Counted from the stretch's first letter, positions 9,033 to 18,589 are shown. The stretch: DNA of 20,000 nt from an uncultured virus (IMG/VR IMGVR_UViG_3300032282_003852) (IMGVR_UViG_3300032282_003852); one strand, 5' to 3'. Numbers and translations: made by a program. The notes: generated from the sequence alone by a model not told the origin.

Positions 9033-12000
9033 TCAGGAAAGAATGTCGGTGATCATTGAGCCAGAACCGATAAGACCGGTTGCACCAAGACCAACCAGGT
9101 TAACTACACGCTCGACGGTGATCTCAGCACGAACCACACGGCGCTCACGCACATAATACTCAGGACGCACGGAAGGAGTTCCAGTGAGTTGATCAAATGT
9201 GTTATCGTAAAAGTTCTTTATCTTTTACATCTTCCTATTTCTAGGAAGTTCAGACTATATCTTCTTCCCTAAATTCTTTTATAAACCTCTGAAGAGTTTT
9301 ACACCTGTACTTGTTCTTTTTAGTTCCTAGACCCAAGAGTTGGCCTAGTGCTATGTCCCCTGGTTTGCCGTTATCAATCCAGATAGCCCTTATGTCATCC
9401 TTTATGGATTCCAAGTCTTTTCTGGAGTTTGGGTGGTTGGCCCCTCTGAGCAGTTTTTCGGATGATAATCTCGATTGAGAAATCCTCCTCTTTCTGTCCT
9501 CTGATAAAGGGACTCCCTTTAAGGCTTGAGCAATCTTCTGGTTATGGGACTTGGATCTAACATAGTTGGATCTTAGGTAATCATAATCCCGGCTCTTACC
9601 TGAACTGCTCATTCTAAAGATGGCGTAGTATAAACCTTCATGTTCTGGGAACATTTTGTTTAGAAGCCGGTGCAGAATGTAGTGCTGTCTAAGGGTTGGG
9701 TAGCACAAGTTGTCCTTACTGGTTGGGTGTCCACCCATACACTTAGGGACAATGTGGTGTTCTTCAGTTTTATAGGTTCTTGGTTTGTTTGAAGGTATTA
9801 CGGAGATTAGATCCCAGTAAACCCTTTCGTATTTGTTTCTATAAAAGCATTTAAGGAGTGGGGCACTCGTGGACGAGTTATTGTTGTCGATACTCATCGT
9901 CTAGTCGTTGAACCTTTTTACTACTACCCCTCTATTATAGGAGGGAAGTTCGACGTAGTAAACTTGGCTGCTGATTACCTTGTGTTTCGTTTTGCGAAAC
10001 CGTCAGGCTTCCCAGCAATTCACCCCATTGACCTGCTGATCAGGCAGGTAATTTGACGTTACCGTCAAACCACGCATCTAACTCGTTGGAATGGAACGAT
10101 GTTATTAACATACGTGTATGCGAAAGCAGGAGTTGCGGCGTTAGCACCACCAGCAGGCATGATAGAATCAGAGGGACCGCTGGGGCTGTAGAACAGAAGG
10201 ATACCGTTGCTGGGGAACACCGGCTGGAGGGTACCATCGGCGGCCAGATAACGACCTTCGGCTACACGCAGACCACGCTCAAGACCGAAGTAGCGGGCAA
10301 GAACGTCGGTGTCGATAGAATCGGCACTGGTGTACTTGATACGCTCAAGGATCGCCTGGTTGGTCAGTAGTTGGTCGAACACTGCGGTTCCGAGAACAGC
10401 AGAGTTAGGACGGATACCGATTTGGTTAGCGACGGCACGCTTCATGGTGAGCACGTCCTCGATGGGGTTACCAGAGAGGGCGGACCAAGCAGCAGGACCG
10501 GCAGCAGTAGCGTAGGAATCCTTGAAAGCGGTCCAGGTCTCAAAGCCGAGACCGGTCTGTGAACCTAGGGTTGTATCCCAGGGCTCATATGGGTTGTAGG
10601 ATGCGGTGACGGTGACAGCTTGAGAAACGGTGTACTCATAGCTGTTCATTCAACTTGTTATCGCTAAGGCTTTTTATCCCTAGCCTCTCTATGTTTCCAC
10701 AGAGTTCAGACTATATCACATACCACAGTTACCAGTAGAAGTCAGGTACTGAACCGGGGTATTTGGGCGCTCGTGGGACTTTCTTCTGTTCTAGATTACT
10801 TGTCCTAGTCGTTGAACCTTCCTTCTATCCCTAGAAGGCTTGGCTGCTGATTGCCTTGCGTTTCGTTCCCGAAACCGTCAGGTTTCCCAGCAATTCACCC
10901 AATTTTCCATGTACTTAACATGGGGCCAATGTTTTTAGCCTCGACATCGCATTGCGGGTCTCAATAGCTCTGAGATCCACTTGTGCCGGACCTTCTCCGG
11001 CGTTCTCAATTCAATTATGTTACCACAAAGGCTCTTTATCCTTTGTATCTTCACATTTCTGTGAAGTTCAGACTATATCTTCACCCTCACTAGTGCCCCC
11101 AGACTTAGCTTTTGCTTTAGCTTCAGCTCTCATTTGGGTCATGTGGTTCCTGGCAGCTTCCCTATGGTCATGAGACCTTTTCTTGTCTGCCCAGTATCTA
11201 AGATTTGCTTCTCTTCTCTTTTGTTTCTCCTCTTCCGTCTATTTCCTGCCTCGGTTAGCCTCATGTGCCCGTCTGGAAGTCTCCTTAGGGAGACTTTTCC
11301 CTTTCTTGGACTCACTCAACTTCCTCCTCATGGACTCAGACTTTTTTCTACCTTTTTCGGCAGCCCCTGGGGACTTCCTAAAGGACTCTTGTTGAAGAGT
11401 AGTAACTAATATGGATAACCTAGGTTTATAACTAATAGACCCACCTTTTCCACTACCTTTACCAAAGATTGCTCTCCTAACATAACACCAGTGTTTAGGA
11501 TTGTTAGTTCCTTTGGCAAGCAGAACGTGGAAGATAAAGTGTTCTCTATGGGTTAACTTTACCAGGTTCTCGGGGTTATCATCTCCTCCATCACAAACTG
11601 GTATGATGTGGTGAATGTGAAACCCCCTCTCCTTTCTTAGTCTTCTATGTTTTCTAGAGTTGCAAAACTTATAGTACCACTTAAGCCACTTGTTAGGGTG
11701 TTGGGTGCTCGTGGACGAGTTATTGTTGTCGATACTCATCGTCTAGTCGTTGAACCTTCTTACCACAGTCACATGTATTATAGCAAGTGACTCGACTTGG
11801 TAAACTTGGCTGCTGATTGCCTTGTGTTTCAGGGAAGTCAGACCCGAAACCGTCAGGTTTCCCAGCAATTCACCCAATTTTTCCGTCAGCCTTTCGACTG
11901 AGGGAGGCTATTGATCTTAACCTCTTCCGGCAGTTCCCAAGCCACTACTTCTTGCTCAAGAGCATAAGGCTCTGAGTCGTAACGGCTCTGAACGAACGGG

Positions 12001-13422
12001 ATGTTGGTCCCGTATGCACGGCGGTAATCGTTAATAGCAAACTGCTCCTTCAATTATGTTATCGCAAAGGCTCTTTATCCTTTGCATCTTTGTATTTCTA
12101 CAAAGTTCAGACTATATCACCATCTTGTAAACAAGATGTGGGGCTCTCGTGTCAGCTTCATCACTGGTCTAGTGGTATGCTGTTAGTCGTTGAACCTTCC
12201 TTCTATCCCTAGAAGGCTTGGCTGCTGATTGCCTGTTTTGTGTAAGCAAAACTAAGGTTTTCCAGCAATTCACCCCATTTTTCATAACCCCTTACGAGGT
12301 TAAGCGGCATATGGAATACCGAAACGCAGGATGCGTCCTGCACGGGTCGGAGTGTCCACAACAGGTGCGATAAAGTTCGCAATGTTGGTGGACGGTAGCA
12401 TAAAACCTTGGGCAAGTGTTGTGAGGATAGGCAATTTGTTATCTTAAGGGCTCTTTATCCCTTAAATCTCTTTGTTCATTTCCAAAGAGTTCAGACTATA
12501 TCATCATCCTGGATTATAGCCTCTTATCCACCCGTCACCGGGAGAAACTTCACTTTTCCTCCTTTCTATAGAACCATCAGAGTTTCTTCTGGACCAGTAG
12601 ACTTTACCTTTGTTTTTGGATCCAGCCTTAGACATAGCAGGACTAATTTCCTTGCTTCTGCCTCTTGTCCATCCTTCCCCTGGAGACTCTAGACTTCTTT
12701 TGTTTTTTCCGTCTTTAGTCCACCACGGGAGCTTGCCTGTAGATTTACCGCCTTTTTTAGCTTGAGACTGCCCTTCGGAAGTATTCAAGAGGTAATTACT
12801 AACGGCAATACTATTGGCTTCTCTGTGTTCTTTCGATATCTTCTTCCCTTTGTGGATCTTGCTGATCTTATCCCTAGTTTCCTGGCTAGTGTCTCCTTTT
12901 CTTCTCGTAGAAAGGGCTTCTCTACATAGAAGTCTAAGTTCTTCGTACTCTTCAGGGGTCATTTCTTCCCCATTCAAGTGACTCATAAACCACAAGGCTG
13001 ACCTTAGTTTGGAATACTCTGGAAAAGTTTCAACTAAGAACTGATGGGCTATTAGATGTTCAGATGGTGTTAAGTAGATAAGGTTTTCTTCTTCCTCTCC
13101 CCCTTCCATACACCTAGGGATAATGTGATGCCTTTCTGTATAAAAGGGCGGTTTCACTCTCCTTTCGGGTAGGAGGCTTTTCAGGAAGAAATAGTAATCC
13201 GAGGAGCTGGGCACTCGTGTAGGAATTATTCCGGGGTTGGTCATCCTTTAGTCGTTGAACCTTTTTACTCTACCCCTATTATAGCAACAGGGGACCCAAA
13301 GTAAACTCGGCTGCTAATTGGCTTCTCAGCGTTTCAGCAATTCACCCAGTTTTCGATCTTCATTTCTGAAGAAAGGGACCATTTTAATCCACACCTGCGT
13401 AGGTTTGTTGTAGATTCATCAT
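9033..13422 (-). CDS. Major capsid protein; spliced gene of 6 exons: 13422-13387, 12431-12318, 12050-11920, 11011-10937, 10650-10112, 9193-9033 (1056 nt, 351 aa)
   Basis: Joined exons read MMNLQQTYAGVD/PILTTLAQGFMLPSTNIANFIAPVVDTPTRAGRILRFG/KEQFAINDYRRAYGTNIPFVQSRYDSEPYALEQEVVAWELPEEV/IENAGEGPAQVDLRAIETRNAMSRL/MNSYEY...GIRPNSAVLG...ILERIKY...TPAFAYTY/QLTGTPSVRPEYYVRERRVVRAEITVERVVNLVGLGATGLIGSGSMITDILS* with no frameshift or stop. The motifs VDPILT.LAQG, G.I..FGKE.F, G.RPN..VLG and P.F.YTYQL match a known phage major-capsid family (recognised from memory). Confidence 0.9.
9250..9897 (-). CDS. Intron-encoded HNH homing endonuclease with NUMOD3-like DNA-binding motif
   Basis: EEHHIVPKCMGG...DNL...TLRQHYILHRLL HNH motif; KGVPLSEDRKRRISQS NUMOD3-like; inside intron 5. 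Confidence 0.9.
   Translation of the reverse strand: MSIDNNNSSTSAPLLKCFYRNKYERVYWDLISVIPSNKPRTYKTEEHHIVPKCMGGHPTSKDNLCYPTLRQHYILHRLLNKMFPEHEGLYYAIFRMSSSGKSRDYDYLRSNYVRSKSHNQKIAQALKGVPLSEDRKRRISQSRLSSEKLLRGANHPNSRKDLESIKDDIRAIWIDNGKPGDIALGQLLGLGTKKNKYRCKTLQRFIKEFREEDIV
9934..9962 (-). promoter_or_regulatory. Sigma70-like promoter inside intron 5, upstream of the HNH ORF
   Basis: TTTACT-17 nt-TATAAT. Confidence 0.7.
10651..10936 (-). mobile_element. Group I intron 4 of the capsid gene (286 nt), ORF-less
   Basis: Core elements present; P1 GGCU|AA with UUGGCC; P10 CAUU with 3'-exon AAUG; terminal G at 10651. Confidence 0.93.
11068..11739 (-). pseudogene. Intron-encoded HNH/NUMOD3 homing endonuclease with an in-frame TAG at 11241-11239
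   Basis: HIHHIIPVCDGGDDNPENLVKLTHREHFIFH HNH motif. The frame continues past TAG for 56 codons (RGRK*TEEEKQKRREA...GEDIV*) and ends at the same EDIV-TGA as the intron-5 enzyme. Confidence 0.8.
11777..11804 (-). promoter_or_regulatory. Sigma70-like (extended -10) promoter inside intron 3
   Basis: TTTACC-16 nt-TATAAT, with TGC directly before TATAAT. Confidence 0.7.
12051..12317 (-). mobile_element. Group I intron 2 of the capsid gene (267 nt), ORF-less
   Basis: Same core elements; P1 CGGU|AU pairs with AUGCCG (U.G at the splice site); ends ...ACATAATTG; removal restores RFG/KEQF. Confidence 0.93.
12504..13244 (-). CDS. Intron-encoded HNH homing endonuclease with NUMOD3-like motifs and two C-terminal W..G repeats
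   Basis: ERHHIIPRCMEGGEEEENLIYLTPSEHLIAH; KGDTSQETRDKISKIHKGKKISKEH; repeats GKLPWWT...SPGEGWTRG / GKVYWS...SPGDGWIRG; inside intron 1. Confidence 0.9.
   Translation of the reverse strand: MTNPGIIPTRVPSSSDYYFFLKSLLPERRVKPPFYTERHHIIPRCMEGGEEEENLIYLTPSEHLIAHQFLVETFPEYSKLRSALWFMSHLNGEEMTPEEYEELRLLCREALSTRRKGDTSQETRDKISKIHKGKKISKEHREANSIAVSNYLLNTSEGQSQAKKGGKSTGKLPWWTKDGKNKRSLESPGEGWTRGRSKEISPAMSKAGSKNKGKVYWSRRNSDGSIERRKSEVSPGDGWIRGYNPG
13278..13305 (-). promoter_or_regulatory. Sigma70-like (extended -10) promoter inside intron 1
   Basis: TTTACT-16 nt-TATAAT, with TGC directly before TATAAT. Confidence 0.7.
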
Positions 13423-13524
13423 AATTGATGTACCACTTATGTTGGGTTGACTTCAAAGGCTACTTTCGTAACCTGACCCCCTTGAGCTTACATTCTTAGG
13501 AGTCAATCGGATTTATACCCAACT

Positions 13525-14118
13525 TCACTTCGCCTTGCGCAGTTCATCCAAACAAGCAGTAATTCCATCCATCTTTCTCTCCCATTCCTCCTGTGCCTTC
13601 TTTTGATTCTGTTCATGCAGCACCATGGAGTCCACAATCACCTGAGGGTTCTGAGTTCCGTAGAAATCATCCACAACGACCGGATAGCACTTATCACAAG
13701 ATGCAGGTTCTACCTCCTCTCTCCCCAGGTACTCGCTTGTTGAAAAGCTATAAGTCTTTCCCTCATACTCCTTTTCCTTAGTTTTGTAAACGTCCCGGAA
13801 CCATTTCACTGAGAACGATCCATCGTCATAGACATGGTATCCGATAAAGTGGAGCAGGGGGCCGAAGACATCCGTATCCTGAGGAATGATTTCCCTAAAC
13901 ATGTGGTGTTTCCAGTGCCTCGTTTCACCAGACTTAGTCTCCCACTCCAGGTACTTGGAAACGAAAGCTAGAACACTGTCTAGGTGATACTCCCTAAAGT
14001 ATGGGTTAGGGCCGTTCTTCCACTCGTTTAACCTATCTTTAAAACACCTGTGATTATCTTCAAGTTCCTTCACTATGTCGTGATGAACGCTGTCAATCAC
14101 TCCGAATAGATCATCCAT
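13525..14118 (-). CDS. Hypothetical protein
   Basis: 197-aa ORF overlapping the end of the upstream MTase gene, with GAGGTG SD; no recognised motif. Confidence 0.75.
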   Translation of the reverse strand: MDDLFGVIDSVHHDIVKELEDNHRCFKDRLNEWKNGPNPYFREYHLDSVLAFVSKYLEWETKSGETRHWKHHMFREIIPQDTDVFGPLLHFIGYHVYDDGSFSVKWFRDVYKTKEKEYEGKTYSFSTSEYLGREEVEPASCDKCYPVVVDDFYGTQNPQVIVDSMVLHEQNQKKAQEEWERKMDGITACLDELRKAK

Positions 14119-14926
14119 TCCCGCTCACCTCTCTCTCATGGTTCATAATCCTTGCCTTAGCTAGCTCAAAATACTCCTTATTTTTCTCAATTCCTATAAA
14201 GTTCCTGCCGGTATTGATGCAGGCGACACCTGTAGAACCAGAACCCATGCAGTTATCCAAAACCACCTCACCTTCAGAAGTGTACGTCTTGATTAGATAC
14301 TCAAGTAGGGGGACAGGTTTCTGGGTTGGGAATATGCGTTCCTTCCCAAATGGCACGTCGTAGCTCAGGATGGAGATGGGGTAGTTAGTTCCTGCAACTT
14401 CGTACTCACCCGCCTTCAAGGCATTGTATCTGAACGTCCCTTCTTTCCTAATGTCGTTCTTCCTAAACCGCTTCTTCTTCTCCCAGCATACCCCTTGAGG
14501 GTTGTATCTAAGGGGGGTAGATGCCCCGGTATTCACCCCAGCATGGCTGAATACAACAATGTCCTCATGAACTTTGAGGGGTTGAAACTTAACCGCAACA
14601 TGATTAGCAGCCTTGTTCTTCTCCCAAACCCAAGTGTATTTATACATCGCCAGGTTAGATGCAACCAAGACAGATGTGAAGGGTTGGGCACCGAATAGCA
14701 CAATTGCCCCATCTGGCTTGATGATCCGGCGATAATGATTCCATAGCGACCCCAGGTCGATAACCGACTCATTACGCATCTGGTTCCCATTCTTGAGGAC
14801 CGTATCAAAATCTGCGTAGGTTGTTCCGTAAGGTAAATCGCAGAGGACCATGTCAACTGAACCATCCGCTATCCCTCCCATCTTGTCGAGACAATCTCCT
14901 TGAAGCAAGTCTATCCCTTCGCTCAT
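14111..14926 (-). CDS. DNA amino-methyltransferase (N6A/N4C, beta class), orphan
   Basis: Motif IV CDLPY, FPTQKP, then motif I VVLDNCMGSGSTG and FIGIE, i.e. beta order; no adjacent restriction gene is evident. Confidence 0.93.
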   Translation of the reverse strand: MSEGIDLLQGDCLDKMGGIADGSVDMVLCDLPYGTTYADFDTVLKNGNQMRNESVIDLGSLWNHYRRIIKPDGAIVLFGAQPFTSVLVASNLAMYKYTWVWEKNKAANHVAVKFQPLKVHEDIVVFSHAGVNTGASTPLRYNPQGVCWEKKKRFRKNDIRKEGTFRYNALKAGEYEVAGTNYPISILSYDVPFGKERIFPTQKPVPLLEYLIKTYTSEGEVVLDNCMGSGSTGVACINTGRNFIGIEKNKEYFELAKARIMNHEREVSGNG

Positions 14927-14948
14927 AGGTGCATTAGTGTTACACCTT

Positions 14949-14976
14949 ATTGTAGGAGGGGGGTGCCCTCAGTAAA
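14949..14976 (-). promoter_or_regulatory. Sigma70-like promoter for the MTase gene
   Basis: TTTACT-16 nt-TACAAT ending 22 nt before the ATG; same -35 variant as the intron promoters. Confidence 0.55.
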
Positions 14977-15027
14977 CCCGTGCCCCAAGCATCTTAGGCT
15001 TCCCTAAATAATGTAGCTACTCGGGGA

Positions 15028-15243
15028 TTACGCAAGGGCATGGCGCTTCATCAGTAGGCCGGTGGCCGTGCGGACGGGGCCAGTCAGGTAGTCCAGCAGG
15101 CTTTCGGCATCAGGGTCAGTGACCTCTTCCAGGGCCTCAGCCGGGGTGATGCCGTAGTGGTCAGCAATGTTACCCAGGACTTCTTTCCGGGTCTTGGCGT
15201 CAATTACTACCAGGAAGGTCTTGGTGACGGTGGCGTTGCTCAT
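15028..15243 (-). CDS. Hypothetical protein
   Basis: 71 aa, SD GAGGGAG, own extended -10 (TGCTACAAT, 15269-15277); GC-rich third codon positions. Confidence 0.75.
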   Translation of the reverse strand: MSNATVTKTFLVVIDAKTRKEVLGNIADHYGITPAEALEEVTDPDAESLLDYLTGPVRTATGLLMKRHALA

Positions 15244-15310
15244 GGCTCCCTCTCTCGTTGACCCCTATATTGTAGCACGTCCCCCCCCGTGTTGTACAGA
15301 GGAGGGGGAA

Positions 15311-15532
15311 TCAGACGACTACAACATCCTCAATCCGGGCGGAAGTAGCACAGCTCGTAGGATGGGGCTCAAAAGTCTTGCTCCACCGGCTCATCACCAA
15401 CGTGGCATCAATCCCTACAAAGCCGTTCCTGACGTACTTAACGGTGCCAATCACCTGTTTGTAGGAGCTGTCCTGGCCCATGCGAGTGGCCTTCACCTTG
15501 GTTCCGACAGCGAAAGGGGCTTCGATGTTCAT
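15311..15532 (-). CDS. Hypothetical protein (small beta-rich, possibly SH3-like)
   Basis: 73 aa, preceded by extended -10 TGGTATAAT (15571-15579). Confidence 0.65.
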   Translation of the reverse strand: MNIEAPFAVGTKVKATRMGQDSSYKQVIGTVKYVRNGFVGIDATLVMSRWSKTFEPHPTSCATSARIEDVVVV

Positions 15533-15593
15533 GGTCTTGTGGCGGTGCGGCCTCAGCCGCTTACCTCCATATTATACCATGCCCCTTAACCCA

Positions 15594-16475
15594 CTAGCAA
15601 GCTGGAGATGGAGGGCGGCTCACGTACAAGGTGTCTAAGTGAAGCCAGGTTTTTCTGCCTTTATTGATAATGACGGCAGACTTCTCCCCTGTATGAGGAT
15701 TTACCTCGATTCCCGATACCGTTCCCTTCGTCAGGAGACAGGATGGGCTCCTTCTCCCCTTTGTGCCACTCGTTCTGTCAATCTGAAAAACTTCCTCATC
15801 AACTATTGAATCACAGGGCAGTTTGTCAGCTTTAACATAGGAAAACCGCCACTCTTGCAAGGAACACTCCCAGCATGACGGCTGCATGTTAGACGGTTTC
15901 CCGTCACCACCTTTGGACTTTGGCACAATCGTGCTTCGGGTCATCAAGTGATGGTCTTCCGTATAAATGTTTATGTGGTCTTTCCCCCCCTGTCTGGAGC
16001 GAATAAGCCTTGTGCCAACCCTACCGCAATAGGAACATCCACACCCCTTCTCTGCAAAAAGTCTTAGATTCTTCTTGTAAGGGAAATCCCCAATAGACGA
16101 CACGGGAAGTTCCTCAACTACAGTTCCCACCTTCCGGCTCGGGAGCAAAACCTTTGTCCCATCTATGTTACACCCCTTGGCATTATTGCACTCCCAGCAC
16201 ATTGGCTGGAGGTTCCCGATGTCGTCCGATCCTCCCATAGACTTAGGGAAGATGTGGTCTACTGTCAAAGGGTGAAGATCCTGAGTATAGACGTCTATGT
16301 GGGGCTTTCCATGAACGTCCTTACCTTGAATCAACCTTGTCCCCTTTCTGCCGCAAGCCACACACTTGCACCCTTTCCCCAAGAACACCTTGATACGAGG
16401 GTACTGGGAGAACTGCCTAAGGTGACTGAAGGGGAACTCTTTTACAAAGGTGTAGTTAAAGTGAGGGAGTTTCAT
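15594..16475 (-). CDS. Free-standing HNH endonuclease with two tandem Zn-finger HNH domains (second degenerate)
   Basis: Domain 1 CVACG...LTVDHIFPKSMGGSDDIGNLQPMCWECNNAKG; domain 2 CSYCG...MTRSTIVPKSKGGDGKPSNMQPSCWECSLQE. Confidence 0.88.
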   Translation of the reverse strand: MKLPHFNYTFVKEFPFSHLRQFSQYPRIKVFLGKGCKCVACGRKGTRLIQGKDVHGKPHIDVYTQDLHPLTVDHIFPKSMGGSDDIGNLQPMCWECNNAKGCNIDGTKVLLPSRKVGTVVEELPVSSIGDFPYKKNLRLFAEKGCGCSYCGRVGTRLIRSRQGGKDHINIYTEDHHLMTRSTIVPKSKGGDGKPSNMQPSCWECSLQEWRFSYVKADKLPCDSIVDEEVFQIDRTSGTKGRRSPSCLLTKGTVSGIEVNPHTGEKSAVIINKGRKTWLHLDTLYVSRPPSPAC

Positions 16476-16514
16476 TGCTACAGGAGGCGTGCGGGAACCC
16501 CCGCTGTCCCCACC

Positions 16515-16544
16515 ATTATACCTTGCCTGGGCGGTCTAGGTCAA
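16515..16544 (-). promoter_or_regulatory. Sigma70-like promoter for the tandem-HNH gene
   Basis: TTGACC-18 nt-TATAAT. Confidence 0.6.
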
Positions 16545-16734
16545 CCCCCCCATCCCCGTAAACCCCGTCCAATGTTTTTGCTATTGCCTCGGCCTTCCCT
16601 GGTGAACGCTCCACAGACAGGCGTAGCCAGACAGGCCCCCACACCTGTCCAATGACACTGTTGCCATGGGCTCGATAGCGGAACCACCGTGCTGGTAGGG
16701 CCTTGTACAGGGGGAGGTGGGGCAGGACAATCAC
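16516..16734 (-). CDS. Hypothetical protein
   Basis: 72 aa, GTGA overlap with the MTase stop; fills the gap in a co-oriented cluster. Confidence 0.5.
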   Translation of the reverse strand: MIVLPHLPLYKALPARWFRYRAHGNSVIGQVWGPVWLRLSVERSPGKAEAIAKTLDGVYGDGGVDLDRPGKV

Positions 16735-17759
16735 TTCGGTAGCCCTTGCGAGTGTGAGGAGTTTGCTAACCGGGTGGGGTCTGGATTGAGTCCTCTCAAC
16801 CTATCCCCAAAAAAGTCTTCTTCCATCCCTAACCTAGACATAATCCCGTCAAAATTACCATCTTCTGACTTAACTTTCGCCCCCAGGGTAGGGGTCTTCC
16901 TCTTAAGGTTTATGTCGAATGTAAACCCCTCAGGACTTAGGTTGTTTGACCTACAGTAGCTCCTTAAGCATTTAAGGTTGGCAAAACTATTGAGTTCATT
17001 AGGCAGACCACTAACCCTTCTCTCCGATACTTCACAATAACTTTTGACCATTTCACTACCTAGATAGTCCCTGCCGTTCTCTTTAGCTACAACAGCCACT
17101 GTGCCTGAGCCAATGTAAGGATCGTAGACCAAGTCCCCTGTATCTGTAGTTGATAAGATAATCCTCGCTATTAAGTCTTCTGGGAACTGACAAGGATGAA
17201 TCGTTTGCTCCTCATGGTTATGTTTAACATTGGAGAAAGCCCAAACATCCCCAGGGTTCTTGCCAAGTGGGTTACATGACAGCTTCCCTTTATTAGACCC
17301 TCTGTGAGACGTCTTCCCCTGGTACTTCTGGGGAACTCTTACGCCATCAAGATTGAACTTATAGGAGCTTGACTTTGAGTACCACATGATGGTTTCATGC
17401 CTCCCTGAGAACCTTCTTTTAGAGTGGAGGCCGTGCTGCCTAACCCAGACAACTCTGTTGACCGGGTTGAACCCCGCCTCGCAAAACCAAGGATAGGTAG
17501 CTATGTCAAGGGGGACATGAAAATGTCCATTAACGTAAATACCAACTTGCCAGAATACTGATCCGGAAGGCTTCAATACCCTGTACATCTCCTTGAACAA
17601 CTTCCCTTGATTGGACAAGTATTCATCTAGACCCACCTGTTTTTCGTATTCCTTACCTATGTTATAAGGAGGAGAACTAACTATTAAGTCTACAGAATCG
17701 TTTGGTAGATGGGATAAAGTGGTAAAACAATCTTCATTTCTTATAGAGTTCAGTTCCAT
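16731..17759 (-). CDS. DNA N4-cytosine methyltransferase (beta class), M.BglII/M.BstYI-like, orphan
   Basis: Motif IV SSPPY; GKNPGDVWAF.NVKHNHEEQTIHPCQFPED; motif I VYDPYIGSGT. The resemblance to M.BglII is from recall and not verified. Confidence 0.88.
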   Translation of the reverse strand: MELNSIRNEDCFTTLSHLPNDSVDLIVSSPPYNIGKEYEKQVGLDEYLSNQGKLFKEMYRVLKPSGSVFWQVGIYVNGHFHVPLDIATYPWFCEAGFNPVNRVVWVRQHGLHSKRRFSGRHETIMWYSKSSSYKFNLDGVRVPQKYQGKTSHRGSNKGKLSCNPLGKNPGDVWAFSNVKHNHEEQTIHPCQFPEDLIARIILSTTDTGDLVYDPYIGSGTVAVVAKENGRDYLGSEMVKSYCEVSERRVSGLPNELNSFANLKCLRSYCRSNNLSPEGFTFDINLKRKTPTLGAKVKSEDGNFDGIMSRLGMEEDFFGDRLRGLNPDPTRLANSSHSQGLPK

Positions 17760-18406: not shown

Positions 18407-18589
18407 TCAGCTACCCTTAAACGAGTTGCCAACCTCGAAAGCCTCCTCAAGGGCTGCCCTGATACTCCAGATTGCGACGTCGTAGAAATCCAAGTCATCC
18501 ATCTTGCGGGTCTCCAGAGTCTCCACATCGAAGTGCTTTTTGGCCAGTGCCTCAAGCAGCTTGGCCTTGGCCCGTTCCCGATCCGTCAT
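18407..18589 (-). CDS. Small conserved protein (DUF6900-like)
   Basis: LETRKMDDLDFYDVAIWSIRAALEEAFEVG motif recognised from memory; has its own promoter. Confidence 0.75.
   Translation of the reverse strand: MTDRERAKAKLLEALAKKHFDVETLETRKMDDLDFYDVAIWSIRAALEEAFEVGNSFKGS

Follow-up and report, generated by a model that had tools for sequence, protein, structure and literature searches.

Mobile introns pose a standing question, namely how an endonuclease gene inside a tightly folded ribozyme can be expressed while splicing stays unharmed, and an experimental answer exists essentially only for phage T4. The same question is raised by a DNA stretch of 20,000 nucleotides (nt) from an uncultured virus (IMG/VR IMGVR_UViG_3300032282_003852), which is referred to as the window, with positions counted from its first letter. 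All genes of the window lie on the minus strand, and its major capsid protein gene is interrupted by five group I introns, three of which (introns 1, 3, and 5) harbor an open reading frame (ORF) encoding an HNH homing endonuclease. In these three introns, a motif resembling a sigma70-type promoter is built into the ribozyme helix P6a. The presence of the motif is confirmed and is not due to chance. On the basis of sequence and conservation, the three P6a sequences are probably bifunctional, acting as a ribozyme helix in the RNA and as a promoter in the DNA.

Promoter-like motif in P6a of introns 1, 3, and 5

The pattern TTTACYN{16,17}TATAAT occurs exactly three times in the window (9934-9962, 11777-11804, and 13278-13305), always on the minus strand, which is also the strand of the HNH ORFs. 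The chance expectation for this three-copy motif was 0.01, and none of 200 shuffles reached three copies. The hexamer TATAAT is exact in all copies, the spacers between the -35 and -10 boxes are 16, 16, and 17 nt in introns 1, 3, and 5, respectively, and two of the three copies (those at 13305 and 11804) have a TG ahead of the -10 box. The gap between the -10 box and the ATG of the HNH gene is 33 nt in intron 1 (13277..13245), 37 nt in intron 3 (11776..11740), and 36 nt in intron 5 (9933..9898). The first-pass annotation of the window had described the motif at these positions, including the TGn-extended -10 box in two copies and the distance of 33-37 nt to the start codon, and all of these elements were recovered in our analysis.

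The Rfam alignments place the motif segments in the P6/P6a hairpin between GCAGCC(A/G)AG and AAGGTTCAACGACTA, which lies between P4' and the P7 strand. The hairpin location given earlier was thus correct, and the helix, formerly named P6, is more precisely P6a, the distal extension of P6. Each of the three segments folds into a hairpin (minimum free energies of -16.6, -12.8, and -14.0 kcal/mol; z-scores of -3.2, -2.5, and -2.2), and TTTACY forms the 5' basal arm in these folds, in agreement with the earlier claim that the -35 box is itself one arm of the RNA stem. As located by motif scan and folding, the extended P6a of intron 1 covers 13264..13305, with TTTACT at 13305-13300, a 5' bulge GGGTC at 13297-13293, and TGC-TATAAT with the -10 box at 13283-13278. 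The hairpin of intron 3 covers 11759..11804 (TTTACC, 11804-11799; bulge GTCGA, 11796-11792; TGC-TATAAT with the -10 box at 11782-11777), and that of intron 5 covers 9917..9962 (TTTACT, 9962-9957; bulge GTCGA, 9954-9950; TATAAT, 9939-9934). The ORF-less introns 2 and 4 have only CCTTCTA-GGGA-TAGAAGG at P6a, as had been noted, which corresponds to a stem of 7 base pairs (bp) with a GGGA loop (12200-12217 and 10822-10839).

A scan of the whole window for sigma70-like sites gave no overall excess (30 sites vs. 23.4 +/- 5.0 in shuffles). The seven best sites, with at least 10 of 12 matches, are all on the coding strand and consist of the three intron sites, one site within an ORF (8356-8328), and three intergenic sites (18644-18616, 16544-16515, and 15600-15571, minus strand). 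Two further intergenic sites on the same strand have 9 of 12 matches (15298-15269 and 14976-14949). These five intergenic sites sit 22-39 nt 5' of the ORF starts at 18589, 16475, 15532, 15243, and 14926, and the genes behind them include a free-standing HNH gene and a DNA methylase gene. The site at 14949..14976 has the layout TTTACT-16-TACAAT and lies 22 nt 5' of the methylase ATG at 14926, as described earlier. Because sites of this kind precede other genes, the phage appears to use such a promoter type, and the intron motifs look like its ordinary promoter-like sites. Additionally, the sequence TANNNT at -13 to -6 is common in cyanobacterial promoters according to a passage of PMC10359606. 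No -35/-10 site of this kind was found just before the capsid gene start. The sequence TATAAAT at 13511-13517 (minus strand), 89 nt 5' of the capsid ATG and just past the stop codon of the upstream ORF, might be a promoter of another, perhaps late, type.

Conservation and RNA role of the long hairpin

A complete scan of IMG/VR for introns of the same subclass with a P6a insert of 36-52 nt yielded 89 stretches. Together with the three introns of the window, they comprise 42 distinct P6a/P7.1 versions, of which 33 have an ORF insert, seven have none, and two are cut off. An eighth ORF-less intron (L256, with a P7-P7' distance of 77) has a hairpin identical to that of the ORF-bearing L249. The core of the -10-like box, TAnnnT, is present in 40 of the 42 versions (31 of 33 with an ORF, all seven without, and both of those cut off), and the exact TATAAT in 17 (15 of 33 with an ORF vs. 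one of seven without). TG precedes the -10 hexamer in 13 of the 42 versions, across all three sub-lineages. The -35-like arm has at least 4 of 6 matches in 36 versions, and the spacer is 15 nt in 20 versions, 16 nt in 19, 17 nt in two, and 19 nt in one.

In alignment A2, generated with MAFFT, position 1 of the -10 hexamer is invariant, positions 2 and 6 are kept in at least 90% of the versions, and positions 3-5 are variable. The first, second, and sixth positions are the strong ones in the known information profile of the -10 element, and the profile in alignment A2 is therefore the conservation pattern of a -10 box. The hexamer also slides relative to the stem-loop boundary, with zero to four of its bases paired in the predicted folds. 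The basal 5' arm is TTTACT in 31 of the 42 versions, with nine distinct hexamers in total (1.57 bits), including two outliers whose first six bases are unlike TTTACT (CATATC in L313 and CCTAAC in L279). Twelve distinct versions occur for the P7.1 stem arm (3.02 bits) and 29 for the distal P6a arm (4.58 bits; n = 42), and short-P6a relatives have 54 distinct hexamers among 64 at the corresponding arm. The varied stems, against two fixed hexamers, indicate that the family has diverged enough for stem covariation and that the hexamers have been held.

Complementarity exists between the 5' bulge of the long P6a and the P7.1 loop (L7.1), in three covarying forms: GTCGA/TCGAC, GGGT(C/A)/(G/T)ACCC, and TTCGG/CCGAA. 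The loop AACCC (13238-13234) in the P7.1 hairpin of intron 1 (13220..13248) is complementary to the P6a bulge, and the loops TCGAC of intron 3 (11732-11728, in a P7.1 hairpin at 11714..11743) and intron 5 (9890-9886, in a P7.1 hairpin at 9872..9901) pair with the bulges GTCGA. Pairs were counted in fixed registers because a gap inside L7.1 in alignment A2 shifts the register. In the fixed register, 191 of 210 positions pair, whereas 5000 trials with partners shuffled among introns averaged 114 pairs and never exceeded 148, and slid registers gave 55-122 pairs. With a looser pairing measure, none of 2000 permutations reached the observed value. Pairs 2 and 3 switch from G-C to T-A and from G-C to C-G, respectively, in about half of the sequences. 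Judging from this covariation, the long hairpin is a structural part of the ribozyme, and the pairing between the P6a bulge and L7.1 is a testable new tertiary contact for the intron subclass, independently of any promoter. The dual role proposed in the first-pass annotation has thus gained support for the helix, by covariation, and for a -10-like conservation in 40 of 42 versions, and the hairpin has proved to be more than a promoter carrier. In the sister lineage, the short P6a hairpins are capped by GNRA-type tetraloops (GGGA, GGAA, and GTAA), and their tips may form a tetraloop-receptor contact where the long lineage forms Watson-Crick pairs with L7.1.

The long hairpin goes together with a particular P7.1 type. 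Because the long P6a is tied to its own P7.1 type, the split of three introns versus two in the capsid gene is a split between two intron lineages, and the correlation between motif and ORF that had been called perfect is a lineage effect. Eight ORF-less relatives keep the hairpin, and many insert-bearing introns of the subclass have no such motif, as is seen in the following survey.

The P7 strand AGGTTCAACGACTA is widespread in viral contigs (an estimated 6700 or so stretches), and selection by this P7 strand together with a P3' anchor gave an estimated total of about 850 stretches, of which 126 were sampled from 9 of 64 parts. The two selections together gave 120 distinct introns of the subclass, with the window and the near-identical contig G001 excluded; G001 is essentially the same phage and thus not independent, and loci L001, L002, and L317 were kept out of the comparative counts. 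An ORF-sized insert between P7 and P7' was present in 23 of the 120 introns and absent from 97. The P6a motif, for which we required TAnnnT, a spacer of 15-18 nt, and agreement with TTGACA at 4 or more of 6 positions, was found in 8 of the 23 introns with an insert and in 3 of the 97 without one in this unbiased sample (odds ratio 16.7; Fisher p 6.6e-5, a statistic that ignores relatedness), and the other 15 insert-bearing introns lacked it. The association between motif and ORF that had been expected over homologous introns therefore exists and is far from perfect.

Twelve insert-bearing introns were first sorted as short-P6a, and two of them (L302 and L320) belong to the long-P6a family. In six others, a long ORF starts 79-151 nt past P7, inside the P8 loop; there, purine runs resembling a Shine-Dalgarno sequence are present in four of these six and promoter-like sites in three. 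The remaining four have only short ORFs on the strand examined. The promoter-like sites at the P8-loop ORFs suggest that promoter position tracks the position of the ORF start. In addition, L011, an unrelated IA2-like intron, has a perfect TTGACA-16-TATAAT in an AT-rich P6a extension, about 53 to 26 nt before P7, and its HNH ORF, which has a good Shine-Dalgarno, begins about 210 nt downstream in the P9 region. From its sequence, L011 is a possible independent case of a P6a promoter. Many introns of the subclass in unrelated viral contigs (L124, L137, L152, L161, L179, and others) precede an exon coding for ...IYNI.P..TPF..., a sequence typical of capsid proteins, and capsid genes seem to be a recurrent home of the subclass. 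Several contigs (e.g., those behind L249-L251 and L256-L259) hold four or more introns in one gene.

Proposed mechanism and rival explanations

The start codon (ATG or GTG) of the HNH gene in the long-P6a lineage lies 4 nt past the P7 strand, at the junction of the P7.1 stem and loop (13244-13242 in intron 1, 11739-11737 in intron 3, and 9897-9895 in intron 5), and introns 3 and 5 have an in-frame TAG two codons 5' of the start. The RTGA motif around the start codon is also present in ORF-less members of the wider subclass, which indicates that the ORF has extended into a pre-existing ribozyme motif. Such growth of an ORF into the ribozyme core is discussed as "core creep" in passages of PMC3073962. 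Since the HNH frame starts only 4 nt past P7 and inside P7.1, no DNA outside the ribozyme is free for a promoter, and P6a would be the nearest upstream peripheral helix that tolerates extra sequence. This position of the start would explain a promoter in P6a, and introns with ORFs in the P8 loop need none there.

As RNA, the hairpin is, by covariation, the extended P6a of a distinct lineage of phage group I introns; it consists of a basal stem, a 5' bulge pairing with L7.1, and a distal stem that varies freely. In the DNA, the same 42-46 bp would serve as a promoter for the host RNA polymerase with its primary sigma factor, as suggested by sequence and conservation, with the basal 5' arm as the -35-like box and the -10 box located in the apical loop and the 3' arm. 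The transcription start would lie about 7 nt past the -10 box, in the 3' arm of P6a, leaving a leader of 27-31 nt before the HNH start. A transcript started in P6a would lack P1-P5 and the 5' half of P6a and would not fold as a ribozyme; it would be an endonuclease mRNA only, produced independently of capsid gene transcription. As a tentative extension to the whole capsid-intron lineage, about 110 nt may be read in three ways, as promoter in the DNA, as P6a-L7.1 pairing in the RNA, and as start codon and first residues in the mRNA. The start site would then decide the fate of a transcript: those from the capsid promoter would splice, and those from P6a would be endonuclease mRNAs, probably made early, before the capsid gene is turned on.

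Several observations weigh against promoter function. The -35 boxes TTTACT and TTTACC match TTGACA at 4 of 6 positions and lack the G of TTG, and the 15-nt spacer found in 20 of the 42 versions would be weak in E. coli. The -10 box is damaged in two members with an ORF, L300 (TATAAC) and L304 (TCTGAT). All eight ORF-less introns with the hairpin keep TAnnnT, two of them with the full TATAAT and without clear decay, and this retention fits a constraint at the RNA level or by ancestry as well. The basal arm and bulge have an RNA role by covariation, and some of the conservation is thereby accounted for without a promoter. No Shine-Dalgarno sequence was found at a usable distance from the HNH starts. 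The folding model also shows no freeing of the start codon in the promoter-initiated transcript: in pseudoknot-free partition-function folding, the AUG is unpaired with a probability of 0.03-0.46 in the short transcript vs. 0.09-0.64 in the long one, and in introns 3 and 5 it is engaged in the P7.1 stem in either context. The geometry nevertheless implies that the P6a bulge, the partner of L7.1, is missing from the short transcript. A search for the stretch returned no RNA run that contains it. Finally, the host is placed by inference only, from protein identity (49-87%) to Synechococcus phage S-CBWM1.

In the main rival explanation, which we regard as rather unlikely, the hairpin acts solely as RNA. 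P6a would dock on the P7.1 loop, TTTACT and TATAAT would be kept by descent or for RNA reasons (stem stability or an unrecognised loop contact), and the HNH protein would be translated from the capsid pre-mRNA or the excised intron. Such a role would account for the bulge-L7.1 pairing, at 191 of 210 positions and unmatched in 5000 permutations and in slid registers, for the retention of the whole hairpin with TAnnnT in ORF-less members, and for a spacer length that follows hairpin geometry, with 15 nt in about half of the family. It also agrees with the lineage's own P7.1 type, by which the three-versus-two pattern is a lineage split. It leaves unexplained, however, why the distal stem varies freely (29 distinct arms among 42) and TAnnnT stays at a fixed distance, sliding relative to the loop, why TG is enriched, and why the motif resembles five intergenic promoter-like sites of the same phage. 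A pairing partner for the loop was not found either, as the reverse complement of an intron's own -10 hexamer occurred in the non-ORF parts of none of the 36 introns with both flanks; 5-mer complements of the -10 loop occurred in 16 of the 36, a measure too AT-rich to inform.

The element could also be a binding site, either an operator or an RNA site, for the intron's own HNH protein, in autorepression or maturase-like help with folding. The element is specific to the HNH-bearing lineage, and there is a precedent in passages of PMC2988022, in which I-TevI binds an operator overlapping its own promoter and the same is proposed of I-TevII as well as I-TevIII. The three HNH proteins of the window, however, share just 27-33% pairwise identity, although their -10 boxes are identical and their -35 boxes nearly so, which would be unexpected for a specific contact, and ORF-less introns keep the element. 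We therefore consider this explanation improbable, and protein binding would in any case be compatible with a promoter rather than a replacement for it. Still less probable is shared ancestry combined with chance, by which the hairpins would be copies of one ancestral insert with a functionless likeness to promoters. All three hairpins do belong to one lineage, and introns within one gene can swap sequence, as indicated by the identical P6a/P7.1 of L256 and L249, which differ in ORF content. Nevertheless, the distal stems have diverged fully with compensatory changes, yet TAnnnT persists in 40 and TTTACT in 31 of the 42 versions, and the chance expectation in the window was low, as given above. 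The combined role of ribozyme helix and promoter accordingly stays our preferred, probable reading of the three sequences.

If it is true, the lineage would provide a clean natural case in which DNA, RNA, and protein codes overlap, and a homing enzyme would be expressed in a host-type and probably early manner from inside a late structural gene. The solution would differ from that of T4 in that the HNH gene would have crept so far into the core that the promoter had to enter a ribozyme helix. About 40 natural variants would then separate the positions kept by the DNA signal from those kept by RNA pairing.

Comparison with known introns and phage context

The remark in the first-pass annotation that T4 intron endonucleases have internal promoters is borne out by PMC2988022. 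According to passages of PMC2988022 and PMC3014915, the endonuclease genes of the T4 td, nrdD, and nrdB introns (I-TevI, I-TevII, I-TevIII) have their own middle or late promoters mapped by primer extension, the late promoter of I-TevI lies inside a hairpin that sequesters the ribosome-binding site, and no early promoters occur among the specific promoters of T4's free-standing endonucleases. As in those accounts of T4, the introns of the window would have a promoter within a group I intron for the homing endonuclease gene, independent of the interrupted gene, and the promoter DNA would double as part of an RNA hairpin whose 5' arm is missing from promoter-initiated transcripts. The T4 promoters described there are middle or late phage promoters in the ORF-bearing loop, followed by a normal Shine-Dalgarno just downstream, in genes that are early or middle; the motif in the window is of a host -35/-10 type, lies in the ribozyme helix P6a with its own tertiary contact, has no Shine-Dalgarno, and interrupts a capsid gene. 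In addition, the T4 hairpin switch frees a sequestered ribosome-binding site, whereas folding of the window introns showed no release of the start codon, and the promoters of the window are predicted from sequence, unlike the mapped ones of T4.

Among the core-creep introns, the ORF of I-HmuI in SPO1 lies in P8, and those of I-PfoP3I in Pf-WMP3 and of PhiI/W31 start in P6a (Table 1 in PMC3073962, and PMC3428280, in part). In these introns, as in the window, the HNH gene overlaps P6a, P7, P7.1, or P8 of a phage group IA-type intron. The corresponding passages of PMC3073962 and PMC3428280 describe no promoter within a ribozyme helix and treat expression as relying on the transcript of the host gene, with a weak ribosome-binding site; the window lineage differs from what is described there, in that its ORF starts in P7.1 and ends in P7', with a promoter-like motif upstream in P6a. 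The Lactococcus group II intron Ll.LtrB, as cited in a passage of PMC3073962, has an internal promoter for its intron-encoded protein. It is a bacterial intron and similar to the predicted case of the window in having its own promoter for the intron's protein, and it differs, as far as that citation goes, in being a group II intron with the promoter in the ORF-bearing loop of domain IV, not in a helix of the catalytic core. In a literature search that covered few subscription journals, no description of a promoter inside P6/P6a or of introns in cyanophage capsid genes was found.

The capsid gene (9033..13422, minus strand) was identified by tblastn with the major head protein of Synechococcus phage S-CBWM1, which is covered end to end by six exons (13422-13387, 12431-12318, 12050-11920, 11011-10937, 10650-10112, and 9193-9033, from exon alignment). 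S-CBWM1 is the nearest isolated phage, with protein identities of 58-87% for the capsid exons and 49% for a baseplate protein. The long-P6a pattern had no matches among the bacterial and archaeal genome contigs scanned, so the host is not identifiable via prophages.

The five interruptions are group I introns according to the Rfam covariance model RF00028, and their boundaries were set from the exon alignment, the U-G pair of P1, and the terminal G. Intron 1 (12432..13386; 955 nt) scored 29.1 bits (E 3.1e-5), which is under the gathering score of 50, and introns 2-5 scored 58.7-96.4 bits, above it: intron 2 (12051..12317; 267 nt; also by exon mapping) 96.4 bits, intron 3 (11012..11919; 908 nt) 72.7 bits, intron 4 (10651..10936; 286 nt) 82.8 bits, and intron 5 (9194..10111; 918 nt) 58.7 bits.

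The HNH ORF of intron 1 (12504..13244; 246 amino acids) matched phrog_655 with an E-value of 7.8e-35, that of intron 3 (11068..11739) with 2.9e-26, and that of intron 5 (9250..9897; 215 amino acids) with 1.1e-32. Only the ORF of intron 3 passed the cut-off of Pfam PF01844 (23.1 bits). The motif HH..P..N..H is visible in the protein alignment, in which H39, H40, N54, and H63 are invariant. The final codons of the intron 5 gene cross the P7' core sequence GATATAGTCTGA. In intron 3, translation gives 166 amino acids up to a premature TAG at 11241-11239 (codon 167), after which the frame stays open for 56 further codons to a TGA at 11070-11068, and its read-through end ...EDIV* is the same as the end of the intron 5 gene. 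The only tRNA of the window is a tRNA-Met (CAT), which is not a suppressor. The TAG looks like a recent nonsense mutation, and the promoter-like motif of this intron is intact.

DNA contigs that join the flanking exons directly were found for introns 1, 3, 4, and 5 in other, mostly freshwater, metagenome runs. The joint at intron 1 (run X2) jumps 958 nt with 3 letters replaced (net 955), that at intron 3 (run X3) jumps 918 nt with 10 letters replaced (net 908), that at intron 4 (runs X2, X3, and X5) jumps 293 nt with 7 letters replaced (net 286), and that at intron 5 (run X3) leads from 9191 to 10110, a jump of exactly 918 nt. These contigs indicate that intron-less alleles occur in nature and that the intron boundaries are right. 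The introns are optional in related phages, as seen in DNA, and this result stands independently of the promoter; splicing at the RNA level is predicted. Additionally, a contig of run X5 with a joint from 11086 to 12137 suggests a chimeric intron formed from the cores of introns 2 and 3.

Upstream of the capsid gene, the region 14111-17759 (minus strand) harbors two DNA methylase genes (14111-14926 and 16731-17759), the free-standing HNH gene (15594-16475), and small ORFs. Within this region, a separate -35/-10-like site lies in front of each of four ORFs, namely the methylase gene starting at 14926, the HNH gene, and two of the small ORFs.

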